Positions 33,719-62,499 of a DNA stretch of 64,000 bases are shown one piece after another. This DNA comes from Mobula hypostoma (Eukaryota), in contig NC_086097.1 of NCBI RefSeq assembly GCF_963921235.1, forward strand, positions 161,450,001 to 161,514,000, given 5' to 3'. Below the pieces are notes generated by a model, which did no database searches, was not told the origin of the DNA, and saw only the letters and a program-made list of their open reading frames with translations. The translations under genes and the position numbers were made by a program. Within the stretch, counting starts at the first letter, position 1. Every line of letters begins with the position of its first letter.

Positions 33719-34078
33719 TATAGAAATCACAGTCCTGGAAACTCCAAGAGGGGCTTTGGAATAGACTGTGCAATCCTCTCCTGTCAAGTTTATATTTCCC
33801 AGATACTGGCAGCATCAGCACTGGGTAGTGTGGTGAAAGCAGTTGGTTCAGTTCGAGTCATCCCTGTTGTGGCATCCATTGGTTCATTCCTTGGCTTTCT
33901 ATCTGCCTCATTTCTCGTGATATATCCTGGAAGTCAAGAAGACCCAGTAGAGGAAGGAAATAAAGAAACTTTAATGGCATCTTCAGTAAACAGTGGGAGA
34001 AGTACAGAGAAGCCGATTGTTTTGAAGTTGACTAGTAAAGGCACCATCTCTGAAGTGGAGATTGAATCGTCTGTTTAA
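33719..34078 (+). CDS. SLC45A4: SLC45A4 last coding exon
   Basis: TTTTACAG|TAT. Encodes YRNHSPGNSKRGFGIDCAILSCQVYISQIL...EKPIVLKLT...IESSV, stop TAA 34076-34078. Confidence 0.97.
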   Translation, partial: YRNHSPGNSKRGFGIDCAILSCQVYISQILAASALGSVVKAVGSVRVIPVVASIGSFLGFLSASFLVIYPGSQEDPVEEGNKETLMASSVNSGRSTEKPIVLKLTSKGTISEVEIESSV

Positions 34079-37000
34079 TAAAACATTCCAGAAAATGCAT
34101 GATCAAAAACACACAATAAATTTCCTGTCTTTCATTCTTTTCTGTAGTCTTAACCCACTTTGTGGAAAAGAAAATTTAAAAACAACCATAATAGGTTCTG
34201 GTAAATGGCAAAATGGCAGTCTGGGAGTGTACTTGGTGAACAAAATTGTTTCATGAGTATTTATTTTTATTTACATTTCAGGACATACATGATAATTTGT
34301 TTTTGTTTACCTTTGGATATAGTGAGGCATCAAGTAAATCGATTGATGGTGGTTACATGTCAATCTAAGCATAGCATTTTGTAGCAAGTGAAACATCTAT
34401 TTTGCAGTTGGTACTGCTTTCCTTAAGTCCTTAATTACACTGTTGCTGATTCTCCCTTTGTGAAATTTTGACTGCAACCATTATAAACAGAGCATTAAAA
34501 AGTAATAGAATCGTTTGACTATCCTTTCTAGAAGTGGAGAGGTTTAATCAACAGTAATCTAAACAATCTAATTATTTGTCCGGGGAAGTAAAATCTTTCA
34601 GTGGTCTTTCCTGTTAGCCCATTAGGTTAAATAAGTACACTTATTTATCCAATAAAGAAGAAACATACTGCTGATATTTTCACTTTGGACAGCACATCAC
34701 AGCTCCCAACTTTTTCCTGACAAATGTCTTGTGGCAAGCCCTACACACACTTGACCAATATGCTTGAATAAGATGGAATTTAATATAATAAGCCCTAGTT
34801 AAATCACTGAGAATTGTCTGAGATATTTTTGTAAGAAATTTAAAATATAGGCTTATAAAGACCACATGTTGCCTATGATATGTTTGTTTCCAATAGCAGA
34901 TGTCCAGATTTGCTGTACTATTTTTGATAACAGATTTACATTTTTGCAACAACAACTGCAAGGCATTCCTTTCCTTCCCTGGGTATCTCAATAAAAGAAC
35001 AAACATTTAATAATAATGTTGCAAATCAGTACAATTAATTTAGTCCACAAAGACCAAGCTAAGAACTTGCCTTGAATGCAGATGACTTATAATTATTGCA
35101 TGGCCTTGATGCCTATAGGTCTTCCTTTATGCTGCCCTTTAAGTGTGTTGGTATGTGCTCAAATTACATATTTTTGGTCCTTTGTCTGAAACTGTTTTCA
35201 CGGCTGCTTTATGATCAAAGATACATTTCTACAAGGTTGAGTGACCTGGAGTTTCTTTCCTGTCTTGGCCTGTTGCACAGCTTCAACTCTCCCTCTTGAG
35301 TTTGAGGTTGGTTACGTTTATGACTTCATACATGAAACACTGGTCACTCCAGCAGTAGAGTATTAGAAGTAACAGCTTAGTAAACCTACTATGGAGAAAT
35401 TTATTTAATATATGAAATAAAAGCATAGGAAAACTAATTGGAGCAGTGCTTTGACAAGTATTACATGCTAGCCTTTTGAAAACTGAACATGGCCTGATGG
35501 TTACAATTTCTTGTAGGTGGCTGAAGGTTACCTGTCCTCTCAGGAAAAGACTGCAAAAATGTGGCATAAAATCATGTATTTTTGTTGTGCAGAAACTCAA
35601 TGCTGGACTGAAAGTGAATTGCTCAGCACAGCCTTGATACTTCCAGAATTAGCCTTAGCTTGATTTTTAGGTTTAGGAATATAATTCAGAATGATTTTCA
35701 CTGTGATGAGGCTGTAGTAAAGACTGAGACTGACACTAACCACTGAATTCTGTTTTATTGTGTGCAGATGAATCACACATTGCAATAATTCATCAACCCA
35801 CCTTAATTGTGAAATCAACATCTCAAGGCATGCAGAAACATAATGGCATTATGTGTAAAATCTGTTGTGCGTTACAATGAATCCACTATTGCTTTGTGAT
35901 GGGTAGACTCAGTGCAAGGAGTGTATTTGGAAGAAAAGTACAAGTTTACCAAAGCAAATAGACACAGTAAATGGCAGTAGAATCCAAGTTTAATGCACTG
36001 GTTCTACACTGACAAGATGTTGACTACTAAAGCAAAACTTTATGAATGTACTATGCGTGGTTCTTTGAATGCTAAGGCAATCCAGCGGAAAATTGCACAC
36101 TGTTCTTCATCAATTTAGAAATGTTTGTCATATTTATTTCGCTATTATATTGAGTGTTTTGTTTTGTATTAAAATACCACCAAGCTTACCATACCTGTTC
36201 TGGAAAAAAATGTCAGTTTGTATTTGGTGCATTTTCTATTTTATACATTTTGGCAATTACCTTTTAAAGTGGGGGAGAAAAAAGATAATGTGCTGGGCCC
36301 TTGATTTTCTGAGTAGCTGCTTTCAATATTATTGCTAACTCCTGCCCAGCATAAGTGAAGCAACGTAACTGTTTAAAAGTGCTTATAATATACTTTGAGG
36401 TGAAGATAATGAATCAATAATACATTTAAAATATACTCTGCAATTTGTAATAACATCAGTTTTATGGCAAGTGGGGAAAATCTGTTAAAGTGCACGTTCA
36501 AATTTACTTGTATTAATATTGACCAGGTCAGAATATCTTAATATGTTTGAGTGGCCTGACTTCATTTAATAAGGGATGTGCCCGATCACACTGTCTGTAC
36601 TAAAAAGTGTCCAGCTGTGATGATGATCAACAGATAACTTATTTTGTGTGAACAGGTCCAGCATTCAAGATCTACAAGAAAAATGCATTTTAGCGTGTCT
36701 GTTGCTTGCCAGTTTTCTGTTCTTAAAGTGCAGCAAAGATTGTGCATTTATCCCATCAACAATATTGAACTTGCACCTGACCAAAAGTAACTGTTCTCAA
36801 ATTTGCACAGCATGCACATTTCTTTTCTGTATTTTTCTAAAGGACTACCAACATTGTTTCAGATCCACAGTTTTAGGAGGCCAGTGTCACTTCGTAATTG
36901 TTGAACTACACTTGGATGAAATGGAGGTCTAAAAACATTGGTACCTCCAAAATGTGTCATTTGCTCTAGCAAGACATTTCATTTTAAGTATGGTTCCATG

Positions 37001-37345
37001 TGAACTGGCTAAAAGACGACTGCTTTTGTAATCAACTTATTAAGTTGGGTCACTAGTAGCTCTTGCTGAGTGGAAATATTAAATGTGTTAAACACATGCT
37101 TTAGTTTTAAAGGGTAAAAGCAAAGAATATTTAAGAATGATACAAGTGACTTAATGGCATAAACTTTATATTTTCAAGCTTTGTGTTAAGAAACAATGAG
37201 TCATTGCATGAAACGGTGACTGACTGTTGAGCACTTTCCATTTTAACTGTATGCTTGATTTTAAAAGAAAATTACAAAAGATTCTATTCTTCCATATAGT
37301 GTTTCAATATATTTCATGAAAAATAAATTGAAGTGAAATTTATTT
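34079..37345 (+). other. SLC45A4: Probable long SLC45A4 3' UTR
   Basis: About 3.2 kb AT-rich stretch with no recognisable transposon in an otherwise repeat-dense region; AATAAA at 37322-37327 followed by a T/GT-rich tract. Confidence 0.55.
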
Positions 37346-38125
37346 TTGTGTCCACTTCTGTTGTCAACTACCTTTAGCTGCTGCTGGTATATTCAATGTT
37401 CATGATTGTTGTAGATTTCCTCCTTAGTTACCTATCAATTAGTTCTTGATAATACTTTAACGTATCTGTGGAAATGGTGCTGCTGAACTGGGTCCAGAAA
37501 TCTAAGCTAATAACCAAAAACACGTGTGAAACTTCCACAATGGCAGCTGTCAAATTTAAAATTAGTTTATTGTTTTTGTCAAATTCCTATTCAACTTAAC
37601 GTATCTGCTCCTGTAACCTTGTCTGGCCACAGGTGGCTCCAGATTCACCATACAGTAACTTCAGTGGAATTCATTTTACTCAGATGGTATTCAATGCCAC
37701 AGACAGCTGTGGAGGCAAAGTTATTAGGTATATTTGAAGCAGAGGTTGATAGGTTCCTGATGAGTAATGGTGTTAGAAGTTAGGGGGAGAAGGCAGAAGA
37801 ATGTTATTGAGAGGTTTTTTAAAAAAAAGCGTATATGGCTGAGTAGATTTGATAAATGGAATGGCCTAATTCTACTCCTATCTATGGTCTAAATTACTGA
37901 ACTTTGGTAGGTTTTAAACAAGCTTAATATTTTCTATTTTCATCACTAGTTACTACATGTCTTTGCTTTCTGGCAAATGCTTAATGAACGTTGTGGAAGT
38001 CATTGCTATTTTTCTGGGGTAAGAGAAAGGGGAAATGTCACATTAATCTTTTTAAGGCTACTGAAAGAGCCTTGTCTACAACTGGTGGCTATATAGCCCA
38101 TCTCAGGATCATCTGAAAGCAGCCA

Positions 38126-38304
38126 CCTGATGACTGATTCTTTAAGCACTATATATTGTAAAGAATTAGGGAACTGACAAAATTTACAGTGAATATATTT
38201 TTTTAATGATGCTGCTGTGTAAGTCTACCTGATGAGTGGTTCTTTAAGTACTATATATTGTAAAGAATTAGGGAACTGACGCTGCTGTGTAAGTCTACCC
38301 GATG
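38126..38304. repeat. Short imperfect local duplication
   Basis: TTCTTTAAG(C/T)ACTATATATTGTAAAGAATTAGGGAACTGAC occurs twice and GCTGCTGTGTAAGTCTACC occurs twice, interleaved. Confidence 0.85.
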
Positions 38305-40164
38305 TGCAAATGTGTAGAATAGGATGACCTGTGTTTTGATTAAAATGAAGATATAACACTGCAGATGCTGGAACCTAGAGCAAAAAAAAAGTTGCTGGTA
38401 TGGTCTGCGGCTGTGGAGGAAAATAAGCAGTGGATATTTCAGGTCAAGGCCCTTCGCTGGCCTGAAAGGATGAAGAAAAGATGGTCAATATATAAAGGTG
38501 AGGGGAAGGGATGGGACAAAAGACAGCCAGAATGTGGAGATGAGCAGAGGGAAGAGTAGGACAAGGGACAAGGGATAGAGGCTGGGTGGTGATGAATGGA
38601 GGCAACAGGGAATCGGATAAGGATTTCCTAGATAAAGGAACATCCCAAATGTCCTGGAGTGGAAGATATCCTTTAGAGAACAAGCACTGCAAAGATAGAG
38701 AAAATGAAAGAAATGAATGGTGTCCTTAAAGGAGATGCTGGGAGTTGGGTTTGCAATAATTCTTTTTTGATAGGTGTCAGTGCTAATTAAGGTTTTTAAA
38801 ATTATCCATGGGTCTGGTGAACATTGAAGTGCTTCTAAAGTCTCCAACTCCTTCGTGGCAAAGGGACAAAACTGGTCTTAAAATCTAATCAATCAAATTC
38901 TTGCAAAAGAACATTATAGTGCACTTCCTTGCATCCATATGGATTCCTGCAATATTATTTAGGTTCCCATGTTAAAGAAAATTGGAGCTCTCTGCAGTAT
39001 CCTTGTTAACATTTACCTCTCCAAACAACCTGCTTCACTATAATATTGAAAATTAGCTGCAGTATTTCCTAACTTCATGTACAAAATAAATTTTGAAGAA
39101 CCATGGTTGTGAAAGGGTTCAAAGTACTTTCAAGTAGTTTGCAGTCATTCATCAGACAGAAGAAAAGATTTTGGAAGAAGGGACAAACTACAGTATATTG
39201 CATTGCTGGAAAGAGCCACACAGTCTCAGTGAATTCTACTGAAATGTGGGGGTGGAAGAGATAAACTATCAATAAAATTCATCAGAAACTATTATTCTTG
39301 TTTGATAAGTTAGTATCAGGACCACAATGGTAATTGCATAGCAGAAATAAAACAATTGCATAACTAGAAATAACATGGTGGATGATGTGCTAGGTGGTGG
39401 GGGCCATTTGAGACCAATAGTCGATCAGAATCCTTTTAGTAACTGGTCTTCAAGTTCTAAACTGCGGGAAGGCAAATTTCATCACTGAATCAAGGCTGAA
39501 AGAAAATTATAGCTGGAAATTTAACGTCCAAACATGCACATTCTGTTGAAAGCACGGGCAGAAGCTGGTTGCTGTTGGTAAAAAATGAAATGAACTCATT
39601 AGTAAAAGCTGACATAGGGCCATAAGGTGTTGAATCATTGTGGATAGAGCTAAGGAACTGCAAGGGTAAAAAGACCTTGATGGAAGTTGTAAAGACACCC
39701 CTGAACAGTAGTAAGGATGTGGTCTACGAATTACAATGTGAGATATAAAATGCATTTCAAAAGGGCAATGTTACAAGTCATACGGGATTTCAATATGCAG
39801 ATAGATTCCAGGAAGGGCAATTCCTAGAGTGGGTATAAGATGGATTTTTAGAGCAGCTCATGGTTGAGCCCACGAGGGGACCAGCTATTCTGGAATGGGT
39901 GTTGTGCACTGAACCACAATTGATTAGAGAGCTTAAGATAAAAGAACCCTCAGGGATGTGATCATAATATGATCAAATTCACCTTGAAATTTAAGAAGGA
40001 GAAGCTAAAGTCAGTATTACAGTGGAGTAAAGGGAATTACAGATACTTAAGAGAAGATTTTAAACTCAAACAACAGGAATTCTGCAGATGCTGGAAATTC
40101 AAGCAACATACATCAAAGTTGCAGGTGAACGCAGCAGGCCAAGCAGCATCTATAGGAAGAGGCG

Positions 40165-40202
40165 CAGTCGACGTTTCAGGCCGAGACCCTTCGTCAGGAC
40201 TA
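40165..40202 (-). ncRNA. Minimal type I hammerhead ribozyme motif (left arm)
   Basis: Reverse complement reads TAGTC-CTGACGA-AGG GTCTCGG CCT-GAAAC-GTC-GACTG: intact CUGANGA and GAAA core, helices I and II, palindromic ACGT helix III. Confidence 0.85.
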
Positions 40203-42193
40203 ACTGAAGGAAGAGTGAGTAAGGGATTTGAAAGCTGGAGGGGGAGGGGGAGATGCAAAATGATAGGAGAAGACAGGAGGGGGAGGGATAGAGCCGAGAG
40301 CTGGACAGGTGATAGGCAAAAGGGGATACGAGAGGATCATGGGACAGGAGGCCTAGGGAGAAAGATGGGGGGGGGTGACCCAGAGGATGGGCAAGAGGTA
40401 TATTTAGAGGGACAGGGAGAAAAAGGAGAGTGAGAGAAAGAATGTGTGCATAAAAATGAGTAACAGCTGGGGTACGAGGGGGAGGTGGGGCCTAGCGGAA
40501 GTTAGAGAAGTCAATGTTCATGCCATCAGGTTGGAGGCTACCCAGACGGAATATAAGGTGTTGTTCCTCCAACCTGAGTGTGGCTTCATCTTTACAGTAG
40601 AGGAGGCCGTGGATAGACATGTCAGAATGGGAATGGGATGTGGAATTAAAATGTGTGGCCACTGGGAGATCCTGCTTTCTCTGGCGGACAGAGCGTAGAT
40701 GTTCAGCAAAGCGGTCTCCCAGTCTGCGTCGGGTCTCACCAATATATAAAAGGCCACATCGGGAGCACCGGACGCAGTATATCACCCCAGTCGACTCACA
40801 GGTGAAGTGATGCCTCACCTGGAAGGACTGTTTGGGGCCCTGAATGGTGGTAAGGGAGGAAGTGTAAGGGCATGTGTAGCACTTGTTCCGCTTACACGGA
40901 TAAGTGCCAGGAGGGAGATCAGTGGGGAGGGATGGGGGGGACGAATGGACAAGGGAGTTGTGTAGGGAGCGATCCCTGCGGAATGCAGAGAGAGGGGGGA
41001 GGGAAAGATGTGCTTAGTGGTGGGATCCCGTTGGAGGTGGCGGAAGTTACGGAGAATAATATGTTGGACCCGGAGGCTGGTGGGGTGGTAGGTGAGGACC
41101 AGGGAACGCTATTCCTAGTGGGGTGGTGGGAGGATGGAGTGAGAGCAGATGTACGTGAAATGGGGGAGATGCGTTTAAGAGCAGAGTTGATAGTGGTCCA
41201 CTATCAACTCTGCTCTTAAACGCATCTCCTCCATTTCACGTACATCTGCTCTCACTCCATCCTCCCACCACCCCACTAGGAATAGGGTTCCCCTGGTCCT
41301 CACCTACCACCCCACCAGCCTCCGGGTCCAACATATTATTCTCCGTAACTTCCGCCACCTCCAACGGGATCCCACCACTAAGCACATCTTTCCCTCCCCC
41401 CTCTCTCTGCATTCCGCAGGGATCGCTCCCTACACAACTCCCTTGTCCATTCGTCCCCCCCATCCCTCCCCACTGATCTCCCTCCTGGCACTTATCCGTG
41501 TAAGCGGAACAAGTGCTACACATGCCCTTACACTTCCTCCCTTACCACCATTCAGGGCCCCAAACAGTCCTTCCAGGTGAGGCATCACTTCACCTGTGAG
41601 TCGACTGGGGTGATATACTGCGTCCGGTGCTCCCGATGTGGCCTTTTATATATTGGTGAGACCCGACGCAGACTGGGAGACCGCTTTGCTGAACATCTAC
41701 GCTCTGTCCGCCAGAGAAAGCAGGATCTCCCAGTGGCCACACATTTTAATTCCACATCCCATTCCCATTCTGACATGTCTATCCACGGCCTCCTCTACTG
41801 TAAAGATGAAGCCACACTCAGGTTGGAGGAACAACACCTTATATTCCGTCTGGGTAGCCTCCAACCTGATGGCATGAACATTGACTTCTCTAACTTCCGC
41901 TAGGCCCCACCTCCCCCTCGTACCCCAGCTGTTACTCATTTTTATGCATACATTCTTTCTCTCACTCTCCTTTTTCTCCCTGTCCCTCTAAATATACCTC
42001 TTGCCCATCCTCTGGGTCACCCCCCCCCCGTCTTTCTCCCTAGGCCTCCTGTCCCATGATCCTCTCGTATCCCCTTTTGCCTATCACCTGTCCAGCTCTC
42101 GGCTCTATCCCTCCCCCTCCTGTCTTCTCCTATCATTTTGCATCTCCCCCTCCCCCTCCAGCTTTCAAATCCCTTACTCACTCTTCCTTCAGT

Positions 42194-42231
42194 TAGTCCT
42201 GACGAAGGGTCTCGGCCTGAAACGTCGACTG
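42194..42231 (+). ncRNA. Minimal type I hammerhead ribozyme motif (right arm)
   Basis: TAGTC / CTGACGA (42199-42205) / AGG..CCT helix II / GAAAC (42219-42223) / GTC triplet with predicted cut after 42226 / GACTG pairing with TAGTC. Confidence 0.87.
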
Positions 42232-43129
42232 CGCCTCTTCCTATAGATGCTGCTTGGCCTGCTGCGTTCACCAGCAACTTTGATGTATGTTACTTAAGAG
42301 AAGAGTTGGCCAAAATTGATTGGAAAAGAACAGGGATGACACAGAGCAGCAATGGCTTCTAAATGGAGGGAAAATGCCAATAATGGAAGCGCAATGGGAC
42401 TTCGGAGCCCTTGTGCAGGGCTCCCTAAAGGTTAATTTACAGGTCAAGTCTGTGGTGAGGAAGGCAAATGCAATGTTAGCATTCATTTGAAGAGGACCAG
42501 AATATAAAAACGAAGATGTAACGTTGAGACTTTATAAAGCAGTGGTGAGGCCCTACTTGGAGTATTGTGAGCAGTTTTAGGACCCTTATCTTAGAAAGGA
42601 TATGCTAAAACTGGTAAGGGTTCAAAGGAGGTTCACGAAAATGATTCCAGGAGTAAACAGTTCGTCATATGAAGAGTGTTCCATGGCTCCGGGCCTGTAT
42701 TCACTGGAATTCAGAAGAATGAGGGGTGACCTCATTGAAACGAATTGAATGGTGAAAGGCCTTGATAGAGTGGACGTGGAGACGATGTTTCCTAAGGTAG
42801 GGGAATCTAAGACCAGAGGATGCAGCCTCAGAATAGAGATGAGGAAAAGTTTCTTTAGCCAGAGAGTAGTGAACCTGCAGAATTCTTTACCACAGGCAGG
42901 TGTAGAGGCCAAGTCTTTATGCCTATTTAAGGCAGAGGTTGATAGATCCTTGATTGGTCAGGACATGAAGGGACAGGAGAAGAAGACAGGAGATTAGGGC
43001 TAAGAGGAAAATTGAATAGCCATAATAAAATAGCAGAGCAGACTCAATGGGCCAAATGGCCTAATTCTGCTCCTATATCTTATGGTCTTGCAGTTCCTTG
43101 TGCAAGTGACATTCCTCACTTGCAAATCT

Positions 43130-44225
43130 CAGTCAGTTTGGATTGGCAACAACATCTGAACTCTCGGATATCTCCTCCACAATCTCCATCAGCACAGATG
43201 CACCACTAGGGTGTAGCCCCTGCTCTACCCACTTTACTTTTATAATTGTGTGGCTAAGCACAGCTCTAAAGCCATACTCAAGTTTGCTAATGACACCACT
43301 GTTGCTGGTCAAATCAAGGTGGTGATGAATCAGCATATAAGAGCGAGACAGAAAATCTGGCTAGTGATGCATAACAACCTCTTACTCAATGTCAGCAAGA
43401 CCAAGGAGCTGATTACTGACATCAGGAGAAGGAAATCAGAGGTCCATGAGCCAGTCCTCATTGTAGGATCAGAGGTGTAGAGGGTCTGCAACTTTAAATT
43501 CCTCAATTATTTTGGAGAACCTGTCCTGGGCCCAGCACATCAGTGCAATTATCAAGAAACCTCTACTTCCTTATAAGTTTGTGGAGATTCAGTTTGACAT
43601 CTAAAACTTTGACAAACTTCTATAGATGTGTAGTGGAGAGCATATTGACTGGCTGTATCATGGCCTGGTATGGAAACACCAATGCGCTTGAATGGAAAAT
43701 CCTACAAAAAGTAGTGGATACAGCCCAGTCCATCACAGGTTAAGCCCTCCCACCAATGAGTACAACTACAGGATCACAGCATCCATCATCAGGGACACGC
43801 ACCACCCAGGGCATGCTCTCTTCTCCTGCTATCAGGAAGAAGGTACAAGAGCCTCAGGACTCACACCACCAGGTTCAGGAACAGTTATTACCCCACCCAT
43901 CAAGCTCATGAACCAAAGGGGATAACTTCACTTGCCCATCATTGAAATATTCCCACAACCTATGGACTCACTTTCAGGGACTTTTCATTTCATGTGTTCG
44001 ATATTTATTGCTTATCTATTTATTATTATTCTTTCTTTCTTGTTGTACTTACACAGTTTGTCTTTTGCATACTGGTTGAATACCCAAGTTGATGCAGTCT
44101 TTCATTAACACTGCTATGGTTATTATTCTATGGATTTACTGACTATGCCCATTAGAAAAGGAATCTCAGGGATGCATATGGTGACATACATGTCCTTTGG
44201 TAATAAATTTACTTTGAACTTTTAA
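43130..44225 (+). mobile_element. Rex1/Babar LINE 3' fragment
   Basis: KFANDTTV, NLLLNVSKTKELI, NFYRCVVESILTGCIMAWYGN; tail AATAAATTTACTTTGAACTTT. Confidence 0.85.
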
Positions 44226-44229
44226 GTTC

Positions 44230-44830
44230 TGTTAACAATCAAAGTGGTAATCTATGCATAGAGCCACAGGAAATCGGTGAAGTCTTAAATGAATACTTCT
44301 CATCTGAAGAAGAAAATAACTTAATCAGTTTAAGAGTGGGGATAGTGATATCCTGTAACATAGCATTACAAGAGAGGTGGTTTTAGAAGTCTTCGAACAA
44401 ATAACAGTAGTTAAATCCCTGGGACCTGATCAAGTGTATACTAAGATGTATGGGAGGCACAGTAATGTTTTCTGGTGCCTTGAGAAATTTGTGTGCCAGA
44501 GGTGAGATGTGGTAAGACTGGAAGATGTTGTACTTTAGGGCAGTACGAATAAATCAACTACAGGCCATTATATCAATGGTGGGAAAGCTATTGGAAGGCA
44601 TTCTGAGAGACAGCATTTTCTTGCATTTGGAAAGGCAAGAATAATTATGGAGAGTCAACAAGGTTTTGTGTGTGGGAAACCATGCCTCACAAATTTGATT
44701 GAGATTTTTGAAAGAGGTGACTTAAGACAATTTAGGAAGGCTAAGCAATAAATGCTGTCTACATCAACGTAAACAAGGCCTTTTGCAAGGACTCACATGA
44801 TCGGCTTATTCAGAAGGATCCAGGACGTGC
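44230..44830 (+). mobile_element. Highly decayed CR1 ORF2 fragment
   Basis: KSLGPD, MVGKLLEGILRD and SQQGFVCGKPCLTNLIE remnants. Confidence 0.7.
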
Positions 44831-44839
44831 TGGGGGCAG

Positions 44840-45118
44840 CACGCAAGCATCGCTGTTCTTTCAGCACCAACACAGCATGCCCACAGCGTACTATCCCCAA
44901 CCCACACGTCTTTGGAATGTGGGAGGAAACCTTGTGGTCATAAGAAGAATATATGGGATCCCTACACACAGTGCTGGGAACTGAAACCCGATTTTACAGC
45001 TTGTGGTCATGGGGAGAATGTACAGGCTCCCTACACACAGTGCTGGGAACTGAACCCCAATTTTACAGCTGGCACTGTAAAGGATTATGTTAACCGCTAA
45101 ACTATCATGCCACCCCTC
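44840..45118 (-). mobile_element. V-SINE-like element with an internal ~69-bp tandem duplication
   Basis: GTCTTTGGAATGTGGGAGGAAACC (reverse V domain); CTTGTGGTCAT...CCCTACACACAGTGCTGGGAACTGAA...TTTTACAG occurs twice (44931-45070). Confidence 0.7.
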
Positions 45119-45261
45119 AATTAGACATCCCAGTATAGATCACAATGGCATCATTCTGTCACAGCCTGCAAATAGTTTTTTTTTTTCCCATTTGTACTTT
45201 CTACAAAATAAGGAAAATTATTTGAGCAGATAAAGAATTTATATCAATAAATTGTTTGGAA

Positions 45262-45510
45262 TGGCACGGTAGTGTAGTGGTTAGCATAATACTATTACAG
45301 CACCAACGACCCAGGTTCAATTCCACTGCTGTCTGTAAGGAATTTGTACATTTTCCCGTGACCTCATGGCACTTCGAGTACTCTACTTTCTTCCCACATT
45401 CCAAAGACATACTGGCTAGCAGATTAATCGGTCACATGGGTGTAACTGGGTGGCGCGGGCTCGTTGGGCCAGAAAGACCTGTTGCTGTGCTGTGTCCCTA
45501 ATAAGAAATT
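45262..45510 (+). mobile_element. tRNA-derived V-SINE-like element
   Basis: A box TAGTGTAGTGG, B box GGTTCAATTCC, V-domain TTCCCACATTCCAAAGAC, CR1-like 3' end. Confidence 0.8.
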
Positions 45511-45552
45511 TACAAAGAAACAGTGCAACTGCTCCCCCTAGTGGAAAGGTTA

Positions 45553-46143
45553 GAAGAGAAAGCAGGATCTCCCAGTTACCACACATTTTAGTTTCATGTC
45601 CCATTCCCATTCTGATATGTCTATCCACGGCCTCCTCTACTGTAAAGATGAAGCCACACTCAGGTTGGAGGAACAACACCTTATATTCTGACTGGGTAGC
45701 CTCCAACCTGATGGCATGAATATTGATTTCTCAAACTTCCACTAATGCCCCACCTCCCCCTCGTACCCCATCCGTTATTTATTTATATACACACATTCTT
45801 TTTCTTTTTTTCTCTCTCTCTCTCCTTTTTCTCCCTCTGTCCCTCTCACTGTACCCCTTGCCCATCCTCTGGGGTTCCCCCCCTCTTCCTTTTCTTTCTC
45901 CCTAGGCCTCCTGTCCCATGATCTTCTCATATCCCTTTTGCCAATCACCTGTCCAGCTCTTGGCTCCATCCCTCCCCCACCTGTCTTCTCCTATCATTTT
46001 GGATCTCCCCCTCCCCGACCTACTTTCAAATCTCTTACTAGCTCTTCCTTCAGTTAGTCCTGACAAGGGCTCTCGGCCCGAAACATCCACTGTACCTCTT
46101 CCTAGAGATGCTGCCTGGCCTGCTGTGTTCACCAGCAACTTTT
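45553..46143 (+). mobile_element. 5'-truncated Penelope-like copy with degenerate hammerhead
   Basis: Colinear with 41712-42280; the hammerhead region 46055-46092 is mutated (CTGACAAGGG...GAAACATCCACTG). Confidence 0.9.
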
Positions 46144-46270
46144 AAATGTTTAAAGTTGCAAGGTTGAGGTGCAGTCCTATGGATCCTGAAAGTCACATTT
46201 CACTAAGAACTTTTCTTGAAATGTTCAGCATTTCTCTTTAACCTCTGTATTTCCAGCATATGTCTTGTTT

Positions 46271-46340
46271 GGGAGACTTGGCTCAAATGGTAGAGTACTT
46301 GCTTAGCATGTGAAAGTTTGTGGATCAATGAACTCATCTG
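46271..46340 (+). pseudogene. tRNA-Ala(AGC)-derived pseudogene
   Basis: GGGAGACTTGGCTCAAATGGTAGAGTACTTGCTTAGCATGTGAAAG...GGATCAATG matches the vertebrate tRNA-Ala D arm, TTAGCAT anticodon loop and the Ala-specific GGATCGATG T-loop, with CpG-type decay; no acceptor stem. Confidence 0.7.
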
Positions 46341-46349
46341 AACTCACGG

Positions 46350-49300
46350 ATAGAAACATAGAAAATAGGTGCAGGAGTAGGCCATTCGGCCCTGCACTGA
46401 CATTCAGTACTGTCATGGCTGATCATCCAACTCAGAACCCTGTACCTGCCTTCTCTCCATACCCCCGATCCCTTTAGCCACAAGGGCCATATCTAACTCC
46501 CTCTTAAATATAGCCAATGAACTGTCTCCTGTGGCAGAGAATTCCACAAATTCACCACTCTCTGTGTGAAGAAGTTTTTCCTCATCTCAGTCCTAAAAGG
46601 CTTCCCCTTTATCCTCAAACTGTGAGCCCTCACTCTGGACTTCCCCAACATCGGAAACAATCTTCCTACACCTAGCCTGTCCAATCCCTTTAGGATTTTA
46701 TACGTTTCAATAAGATCCCCCCTCAGTCTTCTAAATTCCAGAGAGTATAAGCCTAGTCGATCCAGTGTTTCATCATATGAAAGTCCTGCCGTCCCAGGAA
46801 TCAATCTGGTGAACCTTCTTTGTACTCCCTCTATGGCAATAATGTCTTTCCTCAGATTAGGGGACCAAAACTGCACACAATACTCCAGGTGTGGTCTCAC
46901 CAAGGCCTTGTACAACTGCAGTAGTACCTCCCTGCTCCTGTACTCGAATCCTCTTGCCATGAATGCCAGCATACCATTCGCCTTTTTCACCGCCTGCTGT
47001 ACCTGCATGCCCACTTTCAATGACTGGTGTACAATGACACCCAGGTCTCGTTGCACCTCCCCTTTTCCTAATCTGCCACCATTCAGATAATCTGTTTTCC
47101 TGCTCTTGCCACCAAAGTGAATAACCTCACATTTATCCACATTAAATTGCATCTGCCATGAATTTGCCCACTCACCTAACCTATCCAAGTCACCCTGCAT
47201 CCTCTTAGCATCCTCCTCACAGCTAACACTGCCGCCCAGCTTTGTGTCATCTGCAAACTTGGAGATGCTGCATTTAATTCCCTCGTCTGAGTCATTAATA
47301 TATATTGTAAACAACTGGGGTCCCAGCACTGAGCCTTGTGGTATCCCACTAGTCACTGCCTGCCATTCTGAAAAGGTCCCGTTTATTCCCACTCTTTACT
47401 TCCTGTCTGCCAACCAATTCTCTATCGACATCAATACCATACCCCCAATACCGTGTGCTTTAAGTTTGCACACTAATCTCCTGTGTGGGAGCTTGTCAAA
47501 AGCCTTTTGAAAATCCAAATATACCACATCCACTGGTTCTCCCCTATCCACTCTACTAGTTACATCCTCAAAAAATTCTATGAGATTTGTCAGACATGAT
47601 TTTCCTTTAACAAATCAATGCTGACTTTGTCCGATAATTTCATTGCTTTCCGAATGTGCTGTTATCACATCTTTGATAACTGACTCTAGCATTTTCCCCA
47701 CCACTGATGTCAGGCTTACCAGTCTATAATTTCCTGGTTTCTCTCTCCCTCCTTTTTTAAAAAGCAGGGTTACATTAGCCACCCTCCAATCCTCAGGAAC
47801 TAATCCAGAATCTAAAGACATTTGAAAAATTATCACTAATGCATCCACTATTTCTTGGGCTCCTTCCTTAAGCACTCTGGGATGCAGACCATCTGGCCCT
47901 GGGGATTTATCTGACTTTAATCCCTTCAATTTACCTAACACCACTTCCCTACTAACATGTATTTCCCTCAGTTCCTCCATCTCACTAGACCCTCGGACCC
48001 CTACTATTTCTGAAAGATTATTTATGTCCTCTTTAGTGAAGACAGAACTAAAGTAGTTATTCAGTTGGTCTGCCATGTCCTTGTTCTCCATGATCAATTC
48101 ACCTGTTTCTGACTGTAAGGGACCTACATTTGTCTTAACCAATCTTTTTCTTTTCACATATCTATAAAAGCTTTTACAGATAGTTCTTATGTTCCCTGCC
48201 AGCTTTCTCTCATAATCTTTTTCCCCTTTCCTAATTAAGCCCTTTGTCCTCCTTTGCTGGACTCTGAATTTCTCCCAGTCCTCAGGTGTGCCACTTTTTC
48301 TGGCTAATTTGTATGTTTCTTCTTTGAAATTGATACTATCCCTAATTTCCCTTGTCAGCCACAGGTGCACTACCTTCCTTGATTTATTCTTTTGCCAAAC
48401 TGGGATGAACAATTGTTGTAGTTCATCCATGCGATCTTTAAGTGCTTGCCATTGCATATCCACCGTCAACCCTTTAAGTATCAGTTGCCAGTCTATCTTA
48501 GCTAATTCATGTCTCATACCTTCAAAGTTACCCTTCTTTAAGTTCAGAACCTTTGTTACTGAATTAACTATGTCACTCTCCATCTTAATGAAGAATTCCA
48601 CCATATTATGGTCACTCTTACCCAAGGGGCCTCGCACCACAAGATTGCTAACTAATCCCTCCTCATTGCTCAATACCCAGTCTAGAATGGCCTGCTCTCT
48701 AGTTGGTTCCTCGACATGTTGGTTCAGAAAACTATCCCGCATACATTCCAAGAAATCCTCTTCCTCAGCACCCTTACCAATTTGGTTCACCCAATCTATA
48801 TGTATATTGAAGTCACCCATTAGAACTGCTGTTCCTTTATTGCACACATTTCTAATTTCCTGCTTAATGCCATCCCCAATCTCACTACTACTGTTAGGTG
48901 GCCTGTACACAACTCCCACCAGCATTTTCTGCCCCTTAGTGTTATGCAGCTCTACCCATATTGATTCCACATCCTCCCGGCTAATATCCTTCCTTTCTAT
49001 TGTGTTAATCTCCTCTCTAACCAGCAATGCCACCCCACCTCCTTTTCTTTCAAGGTCTATCCCTCCTGAATATTGAATATCCCCGAATGTTGAGCTCCCA
49101 TTCTTGGTCACCCTGGAGCCATGTCTCTGTGATCCCAACTATATCATATTCATTAATAACTATCTGCACATTCAATTCATCCACCTTGTTATGAATGCTC
49201 CTTGCATTGACGCACAAAGCCTTCAGGCTTGCTTTTACAACACTCTTAGCCCTTATACAATTATGCTGAGAAGTGGCCCTTTTTGATTTTTGCCCTAGAT

Positions 49301-49576
49301 TTGCTGGCCTGCCACTTTTACTTTTCACCTTACTACTTTTTGCTTCTACCCTCATTTTACACCCCTCTGTCTCTCTGCACTTGTTCCCATCCCCCTGCCA
49401 CATTAGTTTAAATCGTCCTGAACAACAGTAGCAAATGCTCCCCCTAGGACATTGGTTCCAGTCCAGCCCAGGTGCAGACCGTCCTGTTTGTACCGGTCCC
49501 ACCTCCTCCAGAACTGGTTCCAATGCCCCAGAAATTTGAATCCCTCCCGTTGCACCATTTTTCAAGCCACGTATAG
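46350..49576 (-). mobile_element. Long CR1 LINE: 3' end of ORF1 (SGNH esterase-like) and nearly complete ORF2 (APE endonuclease + RT)
   Basis: ORF1 remnant GHWNQFWRRWDRYKQDGLHLGWTG; NARSI, GITETW, GVVYRPP, GDFN, SDHN; PQGSVLGP, KFADDTK; TTCTATGTTTCTAT tail at ~46350. Few lesions. Confidence 0.95.
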
Positions 49577-50080
49577 TGGACAGCTGTGATCCCAAATCTT
49601 ACATACATTTCTGAAACCCTAAACACCTAACACCATGCACCTCAAGCCAACAGAAAAATCTGCCACATCAGGAATACTCTGCAGTTCTAGTCACCCTTCT
49701 TTGGGAAGGACATGAAATACTGGAGAGGGTGCAAAGGATGTTGGCTTGGATGGAGCAATTCATTTAGGCTATAAATCTTTGTCATAGATATACTTAAATA
49801 CTAAAGCAAATCATAAATCTAAAATATTAATTATTTGTCTCTCCACAAAAATTGCTCAGTATTTTCAACATTTTGTATTTACTTCAAGATATCCAAAATG
49901 TACAATATTTTGCACCAGAAATAATACTTGATTTTTTTTTACATGAAAATTGTTACAAACATCAGGAACCAAAAATTCACATATGTATAAAAATATAGAA
50001 GTGTCATCTTATTCCTCATTTTGATAGTATTCTTGGAGTAATACATTTACCAGCATATTATTAGGGTAAAAAGTACACAG

Positions 50081-50275
50081 CTATTCTACTTTCCAAATAG
50101 CAATCTTCCCATCTTCCCTGCCGGCTCCACTCAGAACATATCTGTTTTCAGCAGAGCACAATGCTCGAACCATGTCCACGTGAGCCACCAGTTCTTTCTC
50201 CACACAGTATTTGTCTGCATCTATCACATATATTTTCCCTTTGACTTTGTCCAATCCTTTGCTTCCAATCCAGAT
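50081..50275 (-). CDS. DENND3: DENND3 last coding exon (WD40 C-terminus), absent from the ORF track
   Basis: Minus strand TTTCAG|ATC...TAG, 65 codons: [64 protein letters not shown]. Matches the DENND3 C-terminus as I recall it. Confidence 0.93.
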
Positions 50276-51270: not shown

Positions 51271-51377
51271 GTTATTTCAGAAAACCCATAGTATTTACAA
51301 ATTGCCAAGCATATGCTGCTTGCTGAATTTAAGGGTAAATGAATTCACCCTAGCAAATCAATTTAATCAAAAGGTTT

Positions 51378-51591
51378 TAAAACGCAAACGACAGGAATTC
51401 TGCAGATGCTGGAAATTCAAGCAACACACATCAAAGTTGCTGGTGAACGCAGCAGGCCAGGCAGCATCTCTAGGAAGAGGTACAGTTGACGTTTCAGGCC
51501 GAGACCCTTCTCTCGGCCTGAAATATCGACTGTACCTCTTCCTAGAGATGCTGCCTGGCCCACTGTGTTCACCAGCAACTTTGATGTGTGT
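51378..51591. mobile_element. Mini fold-back Penelope-like insertion (81-bp arms, 6-nt loop)
   Basis: Arms 51424-51504 and 51511-51591 with an extra tail on the left; TSD AATCAAAAGGTTT at 51365-51377 and 51598-51610 (extends to ~20 bp with 2 mismatches). Confidence 0.92.
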
Positions 51592-51978
51592 CAGTTGAAT
51601 CAAAAGGTTTAGTTACTTTGCTGATACAAACGACTCATTGGGAGACTCTGCTAAAATCACGTCAACCAGCTGAGAAAAAAAACAGCACCAATATGACGTA
51701 GAAGATATTTACAATATATGGAGTTACTTACTAGCAAGACATAGAGGATTTCAGACCAAGTGCTGATAAATGGGATTAGTATATGTGGGAAAATAACAGT
51801 AAGTGAGGAAAGTGAGCCAGAGGGCCTGTTGCTGGGCTGAACGATTCTAGGATTATAAGAAGTTGAAGAACAGTGCTGTGATTGTTAATGCGAACCTGTT
51901 CATCACCTCCTTAGAGAATAAAGCTTTATACTGTACATTTGAATTAGTAAATATTTGACATTTAAGCCATGATATTAC

Positions 51979-54465: not shown

Positions 54466-55583
54466 TCACAAACAGAAGAAAATCTGCACGATTGAAATCC
54501 AAGCAACACACTCAAAATGCTGAGGGAACTCAGCAGGCCAGGCAGCATCTATGGAAAAGAGTCAACAATCGATGTTTCAGGCCCAGACCCTTCATCAGGA
54601 CTGGAAAGGAGGAGGAGAAGTCAGAGTAAGGAGGAGGGCAGGGGAGGAAGAAGTAAAAGATGGTAGGAGATAGGTGGAACCAAGAGAGAGGGAAGGGTGA
54701 AGTAAAGAGTGGGAAGTTGATTGGTGAAAGAGATAAAGGGCTGGAGAAGGGGGGAATGTGATAGGTGAGAACAGCAGACCATGGAAGAAAGGGAAGGAGA
54801 AAGAACATCAGAGGGAGGTGATGGGCAGGTAAGGATATGAGGTGAGAGAAGGGAACAGAAATAGGGAATGCTGAAGGAAGGAGGGTGGGACAATTACCAG
54901 AAGTTAGAGAAACCACTGTCCATGCCATCAAGTTGGAGGCCACCCAGATGGAATACAAGGTAACACACACAAAATGCCAGAGGAACTGAGCAGGTCAGGC
55001 AACATCTACGGAAAAAAGTACAGCCAATATTTTGAGCCGAGACCCTGCAGCAGGTCTGTAGAAAAAAAAGATGAGGAGTAGAACATAAGGTGTTGCTCCT
55101 CCAACCTGAGCATGGCTTCATCATGGCAGTAAAGGAAGCCATTGATTGACATGTCGGAATGGGAATGGGAGGTACTGATGGCATGAACATTGATTTCTCG
55201 AACATCCAGTAACTGCCCCCCTCTTCCTGTTTCCCTCTCTCACCTTACACCTTTACCTGCCCATCACCTCCCTTTGGGGTTCTTCCTCCTTCCCTTTCTT
55301 CCATGGTCTTCTATCTTCTTCCATCAGATTCTCCCCTTCTGCAGCCCTTTATCTCTTTCACCCATCAACTTTCCACTTTACTTCACCCCTTTCCCCTCTC
55401 CCACTTTCACCTATCACCTACCACCTTGTACTTCTTCCACCCCTCCTCCCATCTCCTTACTCTAATTTCTCCTCTTTTTTTCAGTCCTGACAAAGGGTTT
55501 CAGCCCAAAACATCGACTGTTTACTCTTTTCCAGCAATGCTGCCTGGCCTGCTGAGTTCCTCCAGCATTTGCATGTGTTGCTT
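54466..55583. mobile_element. Older fold-back Penelope-like insertion in BEL gag
   Basis: Minus-strand arm ~54466-55170 and plus-strand arm ~55175-55583; 12-bp TSD TGGTGTCTGCTT (54454-54465 and 55584-55595); hammerhead remnants at 54566-54603 (-) and 55482-55519 (+); extra nested pseudo-LTR piece ~54962-55080. Confidence 0.88.
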
Positions 55584-56619: not shown

Positions 56620-58157
56620 CTCCAGAGATGGTCTCACCTGAAACATGTACATTTGCCAGAGCTTAATTCAGAAAATGAGCTGCTGATGGGGACAAATGTG
56701 CCTAAAGCACTGGAGCCATTGCAACTGATTCACAGTGTTAATGATAGACTTTATGTGATTAAAACATTGGGCTGGACTGTGAATGAACGACTGAAAGAGG
56801 ACAATGGTGATGGGAGGGACTGTGCACAGCCTGAGCTGACAGGTAACAGGATCTCAATTTTGAACTTGGATAAACTTTGACAGCAGAAGTTCAAGGAAGA
56901 CTTCTTTGAATGTAATCAGGATGAACGACCTGATCTTTCAAGGGAAGGCCACAAGTTCACGGAGCTGGTTGCGGATCCTGCAAAACTGGTCGATGGCCAT
57001 TACTAGGTCAGTTTGCCTTTGAGAAAGAAGAGGATTAGCATGACAAACAACAGGAAGATTGTAGAACAATGTGCACTAAATCTAAGGAAAAGGTTTAAAA
57101 GAAGAATTTGTCATTTCTTATTGACAAAACAGCTTTCATGATGGATGTCATCCCCAAAGGTTACGCAAAAAGCGTGCCAGCAGAAGATCTGGAATGCAGT
57201 GATGGGGAAAGTCTGGTATATTCCACATCATGGTGTAGAGCACCCTAGAAAAGGGAAACTTTCTGTTGTGTTTGACTGTGGAGCAACTTTTCAAGATATA
57301 TCTTATACAAGGACCAGACCTTACTAACTCACTGACTGCAGTCATAACCAGGCTCAGAAAAGAACCAGTGGTGATCATGGCAGGTACTGAATCAATATTT
57401 CAACAGGTTAAAGTACCAGCAGAAGATGCAGATCTGCTGAGGTTTCTCTGGTGACCTGTTAGTGACCTCAGCTTTGGAGCAACTTAATCACTGAGCTGTG
57501 CCAAATCCGCTCTTAAGAAATGCGCAGAAGATAATACAGAATAGTTCAGCTGCGAGATGGTGGAAAAGGTTTTGCATTGCTTCTATGTTGACAACTGCCT
57601 TGTGTCAGCATCTTTGGAGGAAGAAGCGGTGTCTCTCTATCATGACCTTGTATCCGTTTGTTCTAAAGACGGCCTTCAACTCTCAAAGTGGATAAACAAC
57701 AGACATAGTGTACTAGCTGTGATAACAGAAGAGCAAAGAGTGAAAGACATGAAGGATTTGGATTAGAATCAAGATATACCTTCAGTGGAGTGATACTGGA
57801 TGTGTAATACTGTGTTCAGTTTAATATTTTCTGGAGTTAATCCAACCTAAACCACTCACCAGAAGGGGATCTTCTCCACAGTTTGTTCTATCTATGATCC
57901 TTCTGGGATCTTGAGTCCACTGGTACTATTTGCTAAGATGATCATACAAGATCTAGGTAAGAAAGATCTTGGCTGGGATGAAATTATACCAATGTCAGTT
58001 GCTTATGAGTGGACAAGCCAGCTGCAAGAACTCTGGCAGCTGGAAGGCTTCAAGCTTGTTAAATGTTGGAAGCTCCTGGATTTTGGACAAGTTGCTGCTG
58101 CACAGTTCTACTACTTTATAGATGAAAGCAAAGATAGCTATGGAGCCGTGACCTACC

Positions 58158-58574
58158 TGTAAGGGGGTTTCGACTTTTATGTTGCTGCGGAGGCTAATTA
58201 AAATGGCCTCTTTGTTATGTTAATCTGGGGAATGCAGCTTTGTTGTGTTAAACACTGGGAAAGTTTGCGCTAGCAGCTTGTTTTTGTTTAGAGTGTGATA
58301 AGAGGTTGCTTTTAACCAATTGGGATAGTTGTTATGGTTTTGGTGTATTTGAAGATACTGTATGCGCGGGGTTTTGGGGCAGAAGGCGGGAGAGCGAGAC
58401 AGAGGATGGAGGAGGTGCTGTGATGTCTGCTAACGGGGTCGGACCCCGAGGAGGGCAGAGTGGGGTACCTCACACAGCATCCACACAAACTAATTACCCA
58501 GTTTTGCGGGACCGAAGCTGTTTCCCTAGACGACAGCGAGCCAAGCAACTCTGAGAGTGGCCGGGGGGGCTACA
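58158..58574. mobile_element. Solo LTR (417 bp) nested in BEL RNase H
   Basis: TGTA...TACA termini and 4-bp TSD TACC (58154-58157 and 58575-58578); removal restores GAVTY-LRLHN. Confidence 0.85.
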
Positions 58575-58940: not shown

Positions 58941-61657
58941 TTAAGACCATAAGACAAAGGAGCAGAAGTCGGCCATTCGGCCTATCGCGTCTGCTCCGCC
59001 ATTTTATCATGAGCTGATCCACTCTCCCATTTAGTCCCACTCCCCCGCCTTCTCACCATAACCTTTGATGCCCTGGCTACTCAGATACCTATCAATCTCT
59101 GCCTTAAATACACCCAATGACTTGGCCTCCACTGCCACCCGTGGCAACAAATTCCATAGATTCACCACCCTCTGACTAAAAAAATTTCTTCACATTTCTG
59201 TTCTGAATGGGCGACCTTCAATCCTTAAGTCATGCCCTCTCGTACTAGACTCCCCCATCATGGGAAACAACTTTGCCACATCCACTCTGTCCATGCCTTT
59301 TAACATTCGAAATGTTTCTATGAGGTCTCCCCTCATTCCTCTAAACTCCAAGGATAACAGTCCAAGAGCGGACAAACGTTCCTCATATGTTAACCCTCTC
59401 ATTCCTGGAATCATTCTAGTAAATCTTCTCTGTACCCTCTCCAACGTCAGCACATCCTTTCTTAAATAAGGAGACCAAAACTGCCCACCGTACTCCAAGT
59501 GAGGTCTCACCAGCGCCTTATAGAGCCTCAACATCACATCCCTGCTCCTGCATCCCTATTCCTCGAGAAATGAATGCCAACATTGCATTCGCCTTCTTCA
59601 CTACCGACTCAATCTGGAGGTTAACCTTAAGGGTATCCTGTATGAGGGCTCCCAAGTCCCGTTGCATCTCAGAACTTTGAATTCTTTCCTCATTTAAATA
59701 ATAGTCTGCCCGTTTATTACTTCTGCCAAAGTGCATAACCATACACTTTCCAACATTGTACTTCATTTGCCACTTCTCTGCCCATTCTCCCAATCTATCC
59801 AAGTCTCTCTGCAGACTCTCCCTTTCCTCAGCACTACCGGCCCCTCCACCTATCTTTGTATCGTCAGCAAACTTAGCCACAAAGCCATCTATTCCATAAT
59901 CCAAATCGTTGATGCACAATGTAAAAAGATGCGGACCCAACACAGACCCCTGTGGAACACCACTGGTAACTGGCAGTCAACCAGAATAGGATCCCTTTAT
60001 TCCCACTCTCTGTTTCCTGCCAATCAGCCAACGCTCTATCCATGTATGTAACTTTCCCATAATTCCATGGGCTCTTATCTTGTTAAGTAGCCTCATGTGT
60101 GGCACCTTGTCAAAGGCCTTCTGAAAATCCAAATATACAACATCCACTGCATCTCCCTTGTCTAGCCTACTGGTAATTTCCTCAAAAAATTGTAATAGGT
60201 TTGTCAGGCAGTATTTTCCTTTAAGGAACCCATGCTGAGTTCTGCCTATCTTGTCATATGCCTCCAGGTACTCTGTAACCTCATCCTTGACAATCAACTC
60301 CAACAACTTCCCAACCACCGACGTCAAGCTAACAGGTCTATAATTTCATTTTTGCTTCCTTGCCCCCTTCTTAAATAGCGGAGTGACATTTGCAATCTTC
60401 CAGTCCACTGGAACCATGCCGGAATCTATCGACTTTTGAAAGATCATCGCTAATGCCTCCGCAATCTCCACAGCTACTTCCTTCAGTACACGTGGGTGCA
60501 TTCCATCTGGTCCAGGAGATTTATCTATCTTTAGACTATTCAGCTTCCTGAGTACTTTCTCTGTTGTAATTGTGACTGCACACACTTCTCTTCCCTGCCA
60601 CCCTTGAGTGTCGGGTATATTGCTGATGTCTTCCTCAGTGAAGACTGATGCAAAATACTCGTTCAGTTCCTCTGCCATCTCCTTATCTCCCATTACAATT
60701 TCGCCAGCATCATTTTCTATCGGTCCTATATCTACTCTCACCTGTCTTTTACTCTTTATATACTTGAAAAAGCTTTTAGTATCCTCTTTGATATTATTTG
60801 CTAGCTTCCTTTCATAGTTAATCTTTTCCCTTTTAATGACCTGCTTAGTTTCCTTTTGTAAGGTTTTAAAAACTTCCCAATCCTCTATCTTCCCACTAAT
60901 TTTTGCTTCCTTGTATGCCCTCTCCTTTGCTTTAATTTTGGCTTTGACTTCTCTTGTCAACCACGGTTGTATCCTTCTTCCATTCGAAAATTTCTTCTTT
61001 TTTGGAATATATCTGTCTTGCACCTTCCTCACTTCTCGCATAAACTCCAGCCACTGCTGCTCTGCTGTCTTTCCCGCCAGTGTCCCTTTCCAGTCAACTT
61101 TGGCCAGTTCCTCTCTCATGCCACTGTAATTTCCTTTACTCCACTGAATTACCGACACATCAGATTTCGGCTTCCACAGTGAACTCAATCATGTTATGAT
61201 CACTGCCTCCTAAGGGTTCCTTCACCTCAATCTCTCTAATCACCTCCGGTTCATTACACAATACCCAATCCAGTACAGCCGATCCCCTAGTGGGCTCAAC
61301 AAGCTTTTCTAAAAAGCCATCTCGCAGACATTCTACAAATTCTCTTTCTTGAGATCCAGTGCCGACCTGATTTTCCCAATCTACTCGCATGTTAAAATCC
61401 CCCACAATTATCATAACACTGCCCTTCTGACAAGCCTTTTGTATTTCCTGTTGTAATTTGTAGTCCACATCCCTGCAGCTGTTTGGAGGCCTATAAACAA
61501 CTGCCATCAGGGTCCTTTTACCCCTACAATTTCTTAGCTCAACCCATAAAGATTCTGCAGCTTCCAATCCTATGTCACCTCTTTCTAATGATTTAATATC
61601 ATTTCTTACCAATAAAGCCACGCCTCCCCCTCTGCCTACCTTCCTATCCTTCCGATA
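58941..61657 (-). mobile_element. Young 5'-truncated CR1 LINE ORF2 nested in BEL
   Basis: AVVYRPP, VGDFN, SDHN, KSPGPDG, YLDFQKAFDKVPH, KFADDTK; 3' tail at ~58941. Confidence 0.95.
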
Positions 61658-62499
61658 GGAAGAACTTGGAGAACTTCTGCTAGATGATGGAAGTCAAGAG
61701 AAGTGTTACAATGAATGCTGTGTAGGCTTGAAAGGAGATGGACATGGTAACACATATAATCTATCACTTCTCGTCTTGGACCCATTTGAGGAAGACAGTG
61801 CCCTGGATGCTGAGATTTAAGAACCTGCTTGTTTCTTAGTCAGAAGAGGAAGCAATTGAACATTGCACTTGCTCAGTACGACCTAAATGAAGAGATGAAA
61901 GAATACAAGAGTAGTCATTGGACAGAGAGATTGAAAAGGCCAAATGTCAGATTTGCTAAGGTTGTCCTTCAGTGCAACAGCTCAAATGAGAGGCTACAAT
62001 GGAGATCATCCGTTTATGCCAAAGAAGGTGATTTCCAGATGAATTCTCAAGTTTGCAAGGGGAAGAAACTGAGAAAAGGAACGGTCATATTTTTAAGCTC
62101 AATCCAGTACAAAGATGGTGGCTTGAGAGCTGGTAGACGGTTTAGTAAGGCAGCCATGCCTGAAGAATGTAAACATCCTGTTATACTGGCAAAGGATCTC
62201 CATATCTCAGACATCATTGTGAGGCATGAACATCATGAGGTGGGACATGGTTCCGCCAAAAGTACTGGATTCCTGGTGCTAATACAGCTATAAGAAAAGC
62301 CCTGTTGAAGTGTTCTTTGTTAATGCATTTTGAGGCAAGACAAGGACAGGTTCGTGAACTGCGGTCTGATCATGTGACAAGCTTTGTTGGAGCTGAGCAC
62401 GAGCTGAGAGAAGCCATTGAGAAATGGAACCATCCACGAATCAATGATGTTCTGTACTTAATCCGGAGACGGACAAAGAGTCTATAGAAGTGAGGCAAA

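Follow-up and report, generated by a model that had tools for sequence, protein, structure and literature searches.

The window analyzed here, a 64-kb stretch of the Mobula hypostoma genome, contains two convergent genes and, in the intergenic region between them, a 2.2-kb palindromic insertion (40058-42290). The gene on the plus strand encodes an MFS-type protein with its stop codon at 34076-34078, and its matches were to MFS_2 and MFS-like proteins only; by sequence and synteny, it is taken to be SLC45A4. On the minus strand, DENND3 ends with a stop codon at 50081-50083, and its last exon was 100% identical to Mobula proteins. The positions of both stop codons agree with the convergent geometry assumed in a previous sequence-only reading of this DNA. 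The features of the insertion and its surroundings are listed below.

39572-40057, plus strand: decayed CR1-type LINE fragment, the target of the insertion; it resumes at 42291-42357
40044-40057, plus strand: left copy of the target-site duplication (TSD), 14 bp
40058-41196, minus strand: left arm, same segment of a Penelope-like element (PLE) as the right arm, prolonged by the tail
40058-40105, minus strand: PLE tail of about 48 nt, in the left arm only
40165-40202, minus strand: left-arm mirror motif, identical; predicted cut 40170/40169
41197-42290, plus strand: right arm, comprising the end of the RT thumb region, linker, GIY-YIG and 3' terminal region; no tail
41382-41903, plus strand: open frame encoding the CX4CxxC linker and the GIY-YIG endonuclease (PF01541); mirror at 40492-41013, minus strand
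42194-42231, plus strand: minimal type I hammerhead motif; predicted cut 42226/42227
42194-42198 with 42227-42231, plus strand: helix I
42199-42205, plus strand: CUGACGA box
42206, plus strand: bulged A
42207-42210 with 42215-42218, plus strand: helix II, with G10.1-U11.1
42219-42222, plus strand: GAAA box
42222-42225, plus strand: palindrome ACGU
42291-42304, plus strand: right copy of the TSD, 14/14 identical
45555-46142, plus strand: related but older copy at 87% identity, with a hammerhead (46055-46092) that lacks G8 and the palindrome

The two arms are arranged head-to-head, 5'-truncated and 99.3% identical (five substitutions and two single-base indels), they meet at 41196/41197 around a 1-nt centre, and each carries a hammerhead motif close to its outer end. 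The right arm stops 64 nt past the predicted cut. Family contigs stopped at 40062-40068, where unrelated flanks begin, in agreement with the end of the left-arm tail. Segments 40011-40055 and 42294-42332 on either side of the insertion mapped to overlapping stretches of another LINE copy (61155-61111 and 61119-61081, respectively), and, as judged from this mapping, the flanks are consecutive parts of one CR1 fragment. The CpG observed/expected ratio was 0.51 in the arm, compared to 0.26 for the window and 0.22 for the older copy at 45555-46142. Together, the perfect TSD, the arm difference of 0.7% and the higher CpG content suggest that the insertion is young in relative terms, with no date implied, in line with the recent activity proposed from sequence. 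Gene conversion between the arms could raise their identity.

Each arm encodes a 173-aa frame matching PF01541 (E 6e-05, 23.6 bits; cut-off 22.6), in which C83, C86, Y90, G92, H121 and H127 were invariant across nine aligned proteins. A Mobula hypostoma protein shares 91% identity with this frame, and 2 of 21 longer homologues have the RT domain PF00078 upstream of the same endonuclease. Since the RT catalytic core is missing from the insertion and a single frameshift parts the 41382-41903 frame from an upstream one (41194-41577), the inserted copy is non-autonomous. The linker, CKRNKCYTC, falls within the CX2-5CxxC definition; according to the available text of Craig et al. 2021 (PMC8557442), a linker of this type before GIY-YIG marks Neptune and is common to Nematis. 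On the basis of this linker, the insertion is assigned to a Neptune-type PLE. The PLE origin put forward earlier was corroborated by the GIY-YIG domain, the tail, the inverted arm and the TSD. As a separate observation, three gene models from rays that bear the names mucin-2, DIPK1C and chitinase domain-containing protein 1 (P0003, P0004 and P0014) are largely made up of this PLE's ORF, indicating that PLE copies have been annotated as host isoforms. Further, an annotated protein of the zebra shark Stegostoma tigrinum (P0008) continues past the PLE stop into the terminal region, and its C-terminus matches the translation of the hammerhead frame, with Pro instead of the Leu of the Mobula copy; this would fit a C at position 11.1 in the shark.

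The motif at 42194-42231 reads UAGUC-CUGACGA-AGGGUCUCGGCCU-GAAAC-GUC-GACUG, and the 38-nt sequence on the minus strand at 40165-40202 is identical to it, both as given in the sequence-only reading. Every core box is present (CUGANGA, GAAA, U16.1 and H17), helix I consists of five pairs with a terminal U-G pair, and the ACGU palindrome replaces helix III (the 15.1-16.1 stretch), the cut being predicted after C17 (42226). While the core, helix I and ACGU thus stand as initially described, the helix II register does not. In the isolated motif, the proposed A-U/G-C/G-C register had a pair probability of 0.02, compared to 0.87-0.97 for a register in which A42206 is bulged and G-U, G-C, G-C and U-G pairs close a CUCG loop. 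Among the 10 window sequences that have letters at this place, 9 form the first G-Y pair of the bulged-A register, against 6 of 10 for the first pair of the other register, and the C allele found at 42218 fits the bulged-A register only. In the small window alignment, shuffle statistics were slightly better for the A-U/G-C/G-C register (25-29/500 vs. 112-256/500); nevertheless, it was rejected on folding probability and because of its clash with the C allele.

Minimal hammerheads (min-HHRs) sit in the pLTRs of metazoan PLEs, among them Xena, Poseidon and Neptune of fish (Cervera and De la Pena 2014, PMC4209133, here and below as far as the text was available). Their recurring features are a base that separates position 9 from 10.1, the pairing of G10.1 with C11.1, which is highly conserved but not invariant, and a palindromic 15.2-16.2 stretch. 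The Mobula motif resembles them in being of type I with a full core, a 4-5-bp helix I and an unpaired base between 9 and 10.1, as well as in its palindromic 15.2-16.2, its lack of loop 3 and its terminal-region position, and its placement in the minimal, dimer-type class therefore holds. It differs from them in having G-U where G10.1-C11.1 is usual; with C common in the family, the 42194-42231 copy departs from the consensus at 11.1. Another difference is helix II, which has 4 bp in Mobula and 7-8 bp in the Schistosoma families. Concerning the bulged A, the accessible part of PMC3705267 describes a viroid hammerhead with an extra A at the same place that was only moderately slower. Dual motifs on opposite strands have a precedent in PMC4209133, and cartilaginous fish are not named in its text or in one supplement. 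From its sequence, the motif at 42194-42231 is a genuine min-HHR motif of an already described kind, present at both ends of the insertion.

The bare core pattern matched twice in the 64-kb window (0.34 +/- 0.59 expected), which is weak evidence, as 4 of 100 shuffles reached two matches and both matches derive from one insertion event. When helix I with four pairs, helix II with three pairs and the palindrome were required in addition to the core, the same two window matches were recovered, with none in 100 simulated 64-kb first-order Markov sequences. A covariance-model search, which the sequence-only reading had recommended as a check, gave no support: Rfam hammerhead models had no match at gathering score in the window and none at E<=10 over 42100-42320. 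The motif and the conserved block downstream of it were absent from the viral, metagenome and prokaryote genome contigs scanned, as expected for a vertebrate repeat, and in a protein search nothing matched the spurious frame that runs across the hammerhead.

Nine copies in the window span the motif. Only the two belonging to the 40058-42290 insertion are intact, while the remaining seven are decayed, mainly at CpG sites. A second, older fold-back of the same family, of about 220 bp, lies in the last DENND3 intron at 51365-51610; it has a 13-bp TSD at 51365 and 51598, its arms are identical at 76 of 85 positions, and it is centred in hammerhead helix II, with the CUGANGA box missing from both halves. 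At 54467-55583, there is a cluster of a different hammerhead-bearing PLE subfamily, with copies at 54602 (minus), 55057 (minus) and 55483 (plus), which has the motif block in common but different flanks, and whose helix I opens with C-G rather than U-G.

Variation across the family was read from contigs of four sequencing runs (X1, X5, X9 and X20), whose contig depth cannot be equated with copy number and leans toward the allele of the 42194-42231 copy. Measured in this way, C at position 11.1 (42218) accounted for 20, 29, 45 and 76% of depth in X1, X5, X9 and X20, respectively, while U11.1 made up approximately 80% and 71% in the two closest runs and approximately 24% in X20. Core positions were absent from the best 40 of 93 variant rows, although the other 53 may include core CpG sites. 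Among the same best 40 of 93, two rows fell within the 38-nt motif, whereas six places varied in the 23 nt downstream and six in the 38 nt upstream. By these counts, the core looks conserved across the family. Loose ends of diverged subfamilies were found at 40165 in all four runs (115, 60, 5 and 350 contigs) and, among the rows listed, beyond which lie 736 further loose-end rows, at 40201 in every run except X1 (58, 3 and 310 contigs), suggesting that subfamilies diverge at the ends of helix I. A pile-up of RNA ends was not among the results, although such ends are invisible in contigs. At the 40165 break, shared sequence resumes beyond a short gap. A variant at 40166, with 68% of depth in X20, breaks the fourth helix I pair, and a compensating change was not visible. 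In an alignment of 11 window sequences, mostly decayed and two of them from one event, 91.6% of cells were paired, a value reached by 112 of 500 shuffles; pairing in helix I was 90.5%, and covariation was not above shuffles (256/500 as high).

Folding predictions were based on nearest-neighbour energies, which leave out tertiary contacts, Mg2+ and proteins. The isolated monomer favoured a hairpin in which the core GACG pairs with CGUC (-11.0 kcal/mol vs. -7.0 kcal/mol for the ribozyme fold; probability 0.98-0.99), and in single-arm context the probability of helices I and II was at most 0.01. The active dimer reached -11.5 kcal/mol, compared to -30.3 kcal/mol for the best two-strand fold. With C at 11.1, the predicted active dimer amounted to -16.7 kcal/mol, i.e. 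the U11.1 version is less stable by 5 kcal/mol. These predictions for 42194-42231 agree with published data: monomers of min-HHRs did not cleave and dimers showed low cleavage (PMC4209133), and the hammerhead of an anole PLE cleaved in a protein-dependent manner and was dispensable for insertion in vitro (PMC11167929).

The family had also been described as ribozyme-processed, which was not borne out. Both arms are continuous across the predicted cut site; hence, the template RNA was presumably either uncut there or re-ligated. In the corresponding assay of the anole element, the one PLE studied in vitro (PMC11167929), uncleaved RNA was the insertion substrate, and HHR mutations left insertion unaffected. 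The available text of Craig et al. 2021 (PMC8557442) calls the function of PLE hammerheads unclear.

It had further been proposed that read-through from either neighbouring gene would contain a sense ribozyme. Literally, such RNA would contain the sense motif, 8.1 or 9.9 kb beyond the stop codons, but the functional sense of the proposal is reversed. From either direction, polymerase reaches the antisense arm before the sense motif, and 12 poly(A) hexamers on the plus strand (34078-40044) and 8 on the minus strand (42304-50081) lie along the way. When 2551 nt of read-through RNA were folded, the minimum-free-energy (MFE) structure paired all 38 motif bases with the mirror copy on either strand, and the duplex of motif and antisense reached -80 kcal/mol, far below both the monomer ribozyme fold and the active dimer. 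With the antisense copy invariably transcribed first, the prediction is that the sense motif ends up hidden inside a duplex of about 1.1 kb, and because each strand has one intact motif, a dimer in cis is impossible. A promoter near the palindrome centre would yield single-arm RNA without the antisense arm.

Both the motif class and the layout of the insertion have been published. Arkhipova et al. 2013 (PMC3846280) and Craig et al. 2021 (PMC8557442) describe PLE insertions that comprise an inverted, 5'-truncated copy, a tail on one side and a TSD, and the Mobula insertion resembles these EN+ PLE insertions with regard to its head-to-head arms, one-sided tail and short TSD. Its tail measures about 38-48 nt, against 30-40 bp described for EN+ PLEs, and, unlike the examples in those texts, the entire Mobula insertion is a symmetric 2.2-kb palindrome. 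As in the Anolis carolinensis Poseidon element PAc (Frangieh et al. 2024, PMC11167929, in the part available), inserted copies cross the cut site and the hammerhead lies upstream of two preferred 3' ends that bound the tail. PAc belongs to the Poseidon clade, is full length and showed protein-assisted cleavage in vitro, whereas the Mobula copy has a Neptune-type linker, is without RT and is known from sequence alone. Non-LTR retrozymes, reported in the one chondrichthyan genome sampled in the accessible part of bioRxiv 10.64898/2026.07.22.740005, also carry a type I hammerhead related to that of PLE pLTRs. They are non-coding, head-to-tail tandem repeats, and identity with them is ruled out by the head-to-head arms and the endonuclease frame of the Mobula insertion, which retains an ORF remnant. 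A description of this ray PLE family was not found in the literature searched, which lay outside subscription journals and Repbase/Dfam.

Considering all these results, we regard it as very probable that the motif is a standard Neptune-type PLE hammerhead, doubled by a young, truncated fold-back insertion and likely to be a non-cleaving passenger at this locus. In the source element, the hammerhead would cleave slowly, probably only as a dimer held by the ACGU palindrome or together with the element's protein. Target-primed reverse transcription of RNA uncut at the site would have started in the distal tail, and the cDNA would have been truncated after approximately 1.14 kb and then copied back into the second arm, with joining at the second nick, where element and target match at 4 of 5 bases. 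Alternatively, the arms may have been made by twin priming from two start sites. The motif is present twice since a single 5'-truncated insertion integrated as a fold-back. At 40058-42290 itself, cleavage probably does not occur, and read-through from either gene is predicted to zip into a hairpin of about 1.1 kb, which would be a dsRNA substrate and not a ribozyme.

Three other explanations were weighed against this one. That the palindrome is an assembly artefact from a fold-back read, with an unreal mirror copy, is barely credible. Chimeric long reads typically give near-perfect inverted arms meeting at one base, as seen here, and none of the contigs was seen to span the insertion junction. 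On the other hand, the arms differ at seven places and have unlike ends, with a tail on one only, the 14-bp TSD bounds the insertion inside a contiguous LINE fragment, and the older palindrome at 51365-51610 has its own 13-bp TSD, for which reasons an artefact was rejected. It is also highly improbable that the motif is active at the locus and, by cutting SLC45A4 or DENND3 read-through, serves as a terminator or stability element. In favour of this view are the intact core of either arm, the convergence of the genes on the insertion and the theoretical option of a dimer in trans between two transcripts; nonetheless, the distance from the stop codons with its intervening poly(A) hexamers, the complete pairing of each sense motif with the antisense copy preceding it, and the single intact motif per strand, the next plus-strand copy (46055) having a broken core, all argue against such activity.

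A relaxed or non-catalytic hammerhead in the young subfamily, in which U11.1 took the place of the conserved C11.1 in the source element, amplification went on, and the motif serves as a protein-binding or RT-positioning structure or persists as a relic, appears quite unlikely. U11.1 is shared by the two arms here and by those of the separate mini-palindrome at 51378-51597, which points to the template; it prevails in depth in the two closest runs, though not in X20, it weakens the predicted dimer, and mutation of the hammerhead was without effect on the insertion of the anole element (PMC11167929). Conversely, the C at position 11.1 belongs to a CpG, and U can therefore arise repeatedly by deamination, and the G-to-A product of the same site occurs in window copies 55483, 25570 and 29067. 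The depth values are contig-weighted and biased to the allele of this copy, and G-U pairs anyway. A bolder version, improbable but worth stating, is that the newest devil-ray Neptune subfamily fixed G-U at 10.1-11.1 and kept spreading, while its fold-backs turn read-through into kilobase hairpins. If true, the devil-ray lineage would be a natural test of whether a PLE hammerhead must cut, and palindromic copies would be a built-in source of silencing dsRNA against their own family.

The Mobula copy provides a clean case from a ray, young and with C11.1 and U11.1 as naturally occurring alleles, and the folding model predicts that the ribozyme of a fold-back PLE insertion is silenced in read-through RNA rather than presented. 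The remaining interest lies in the dominance of the U11.1 allele in the closest runs and in this self-burying geometry.

Other repeats were also detected in the window. Two LINEs on the minus strand (46496-49598 and 59193-61693) have long open endonuclease and RT frames, and the former, which shares the orientation of DENND3 and lies directly downstream of it, could itself give rise to read-through toward the palindrome. Broken PIF1-like helicase frames at 8250-10187 (plus strand) are likely a Helitron remnant, and a fragment of a Pao/BEL retrotransposon peptidase is present at 57851-58159 (plus strand).
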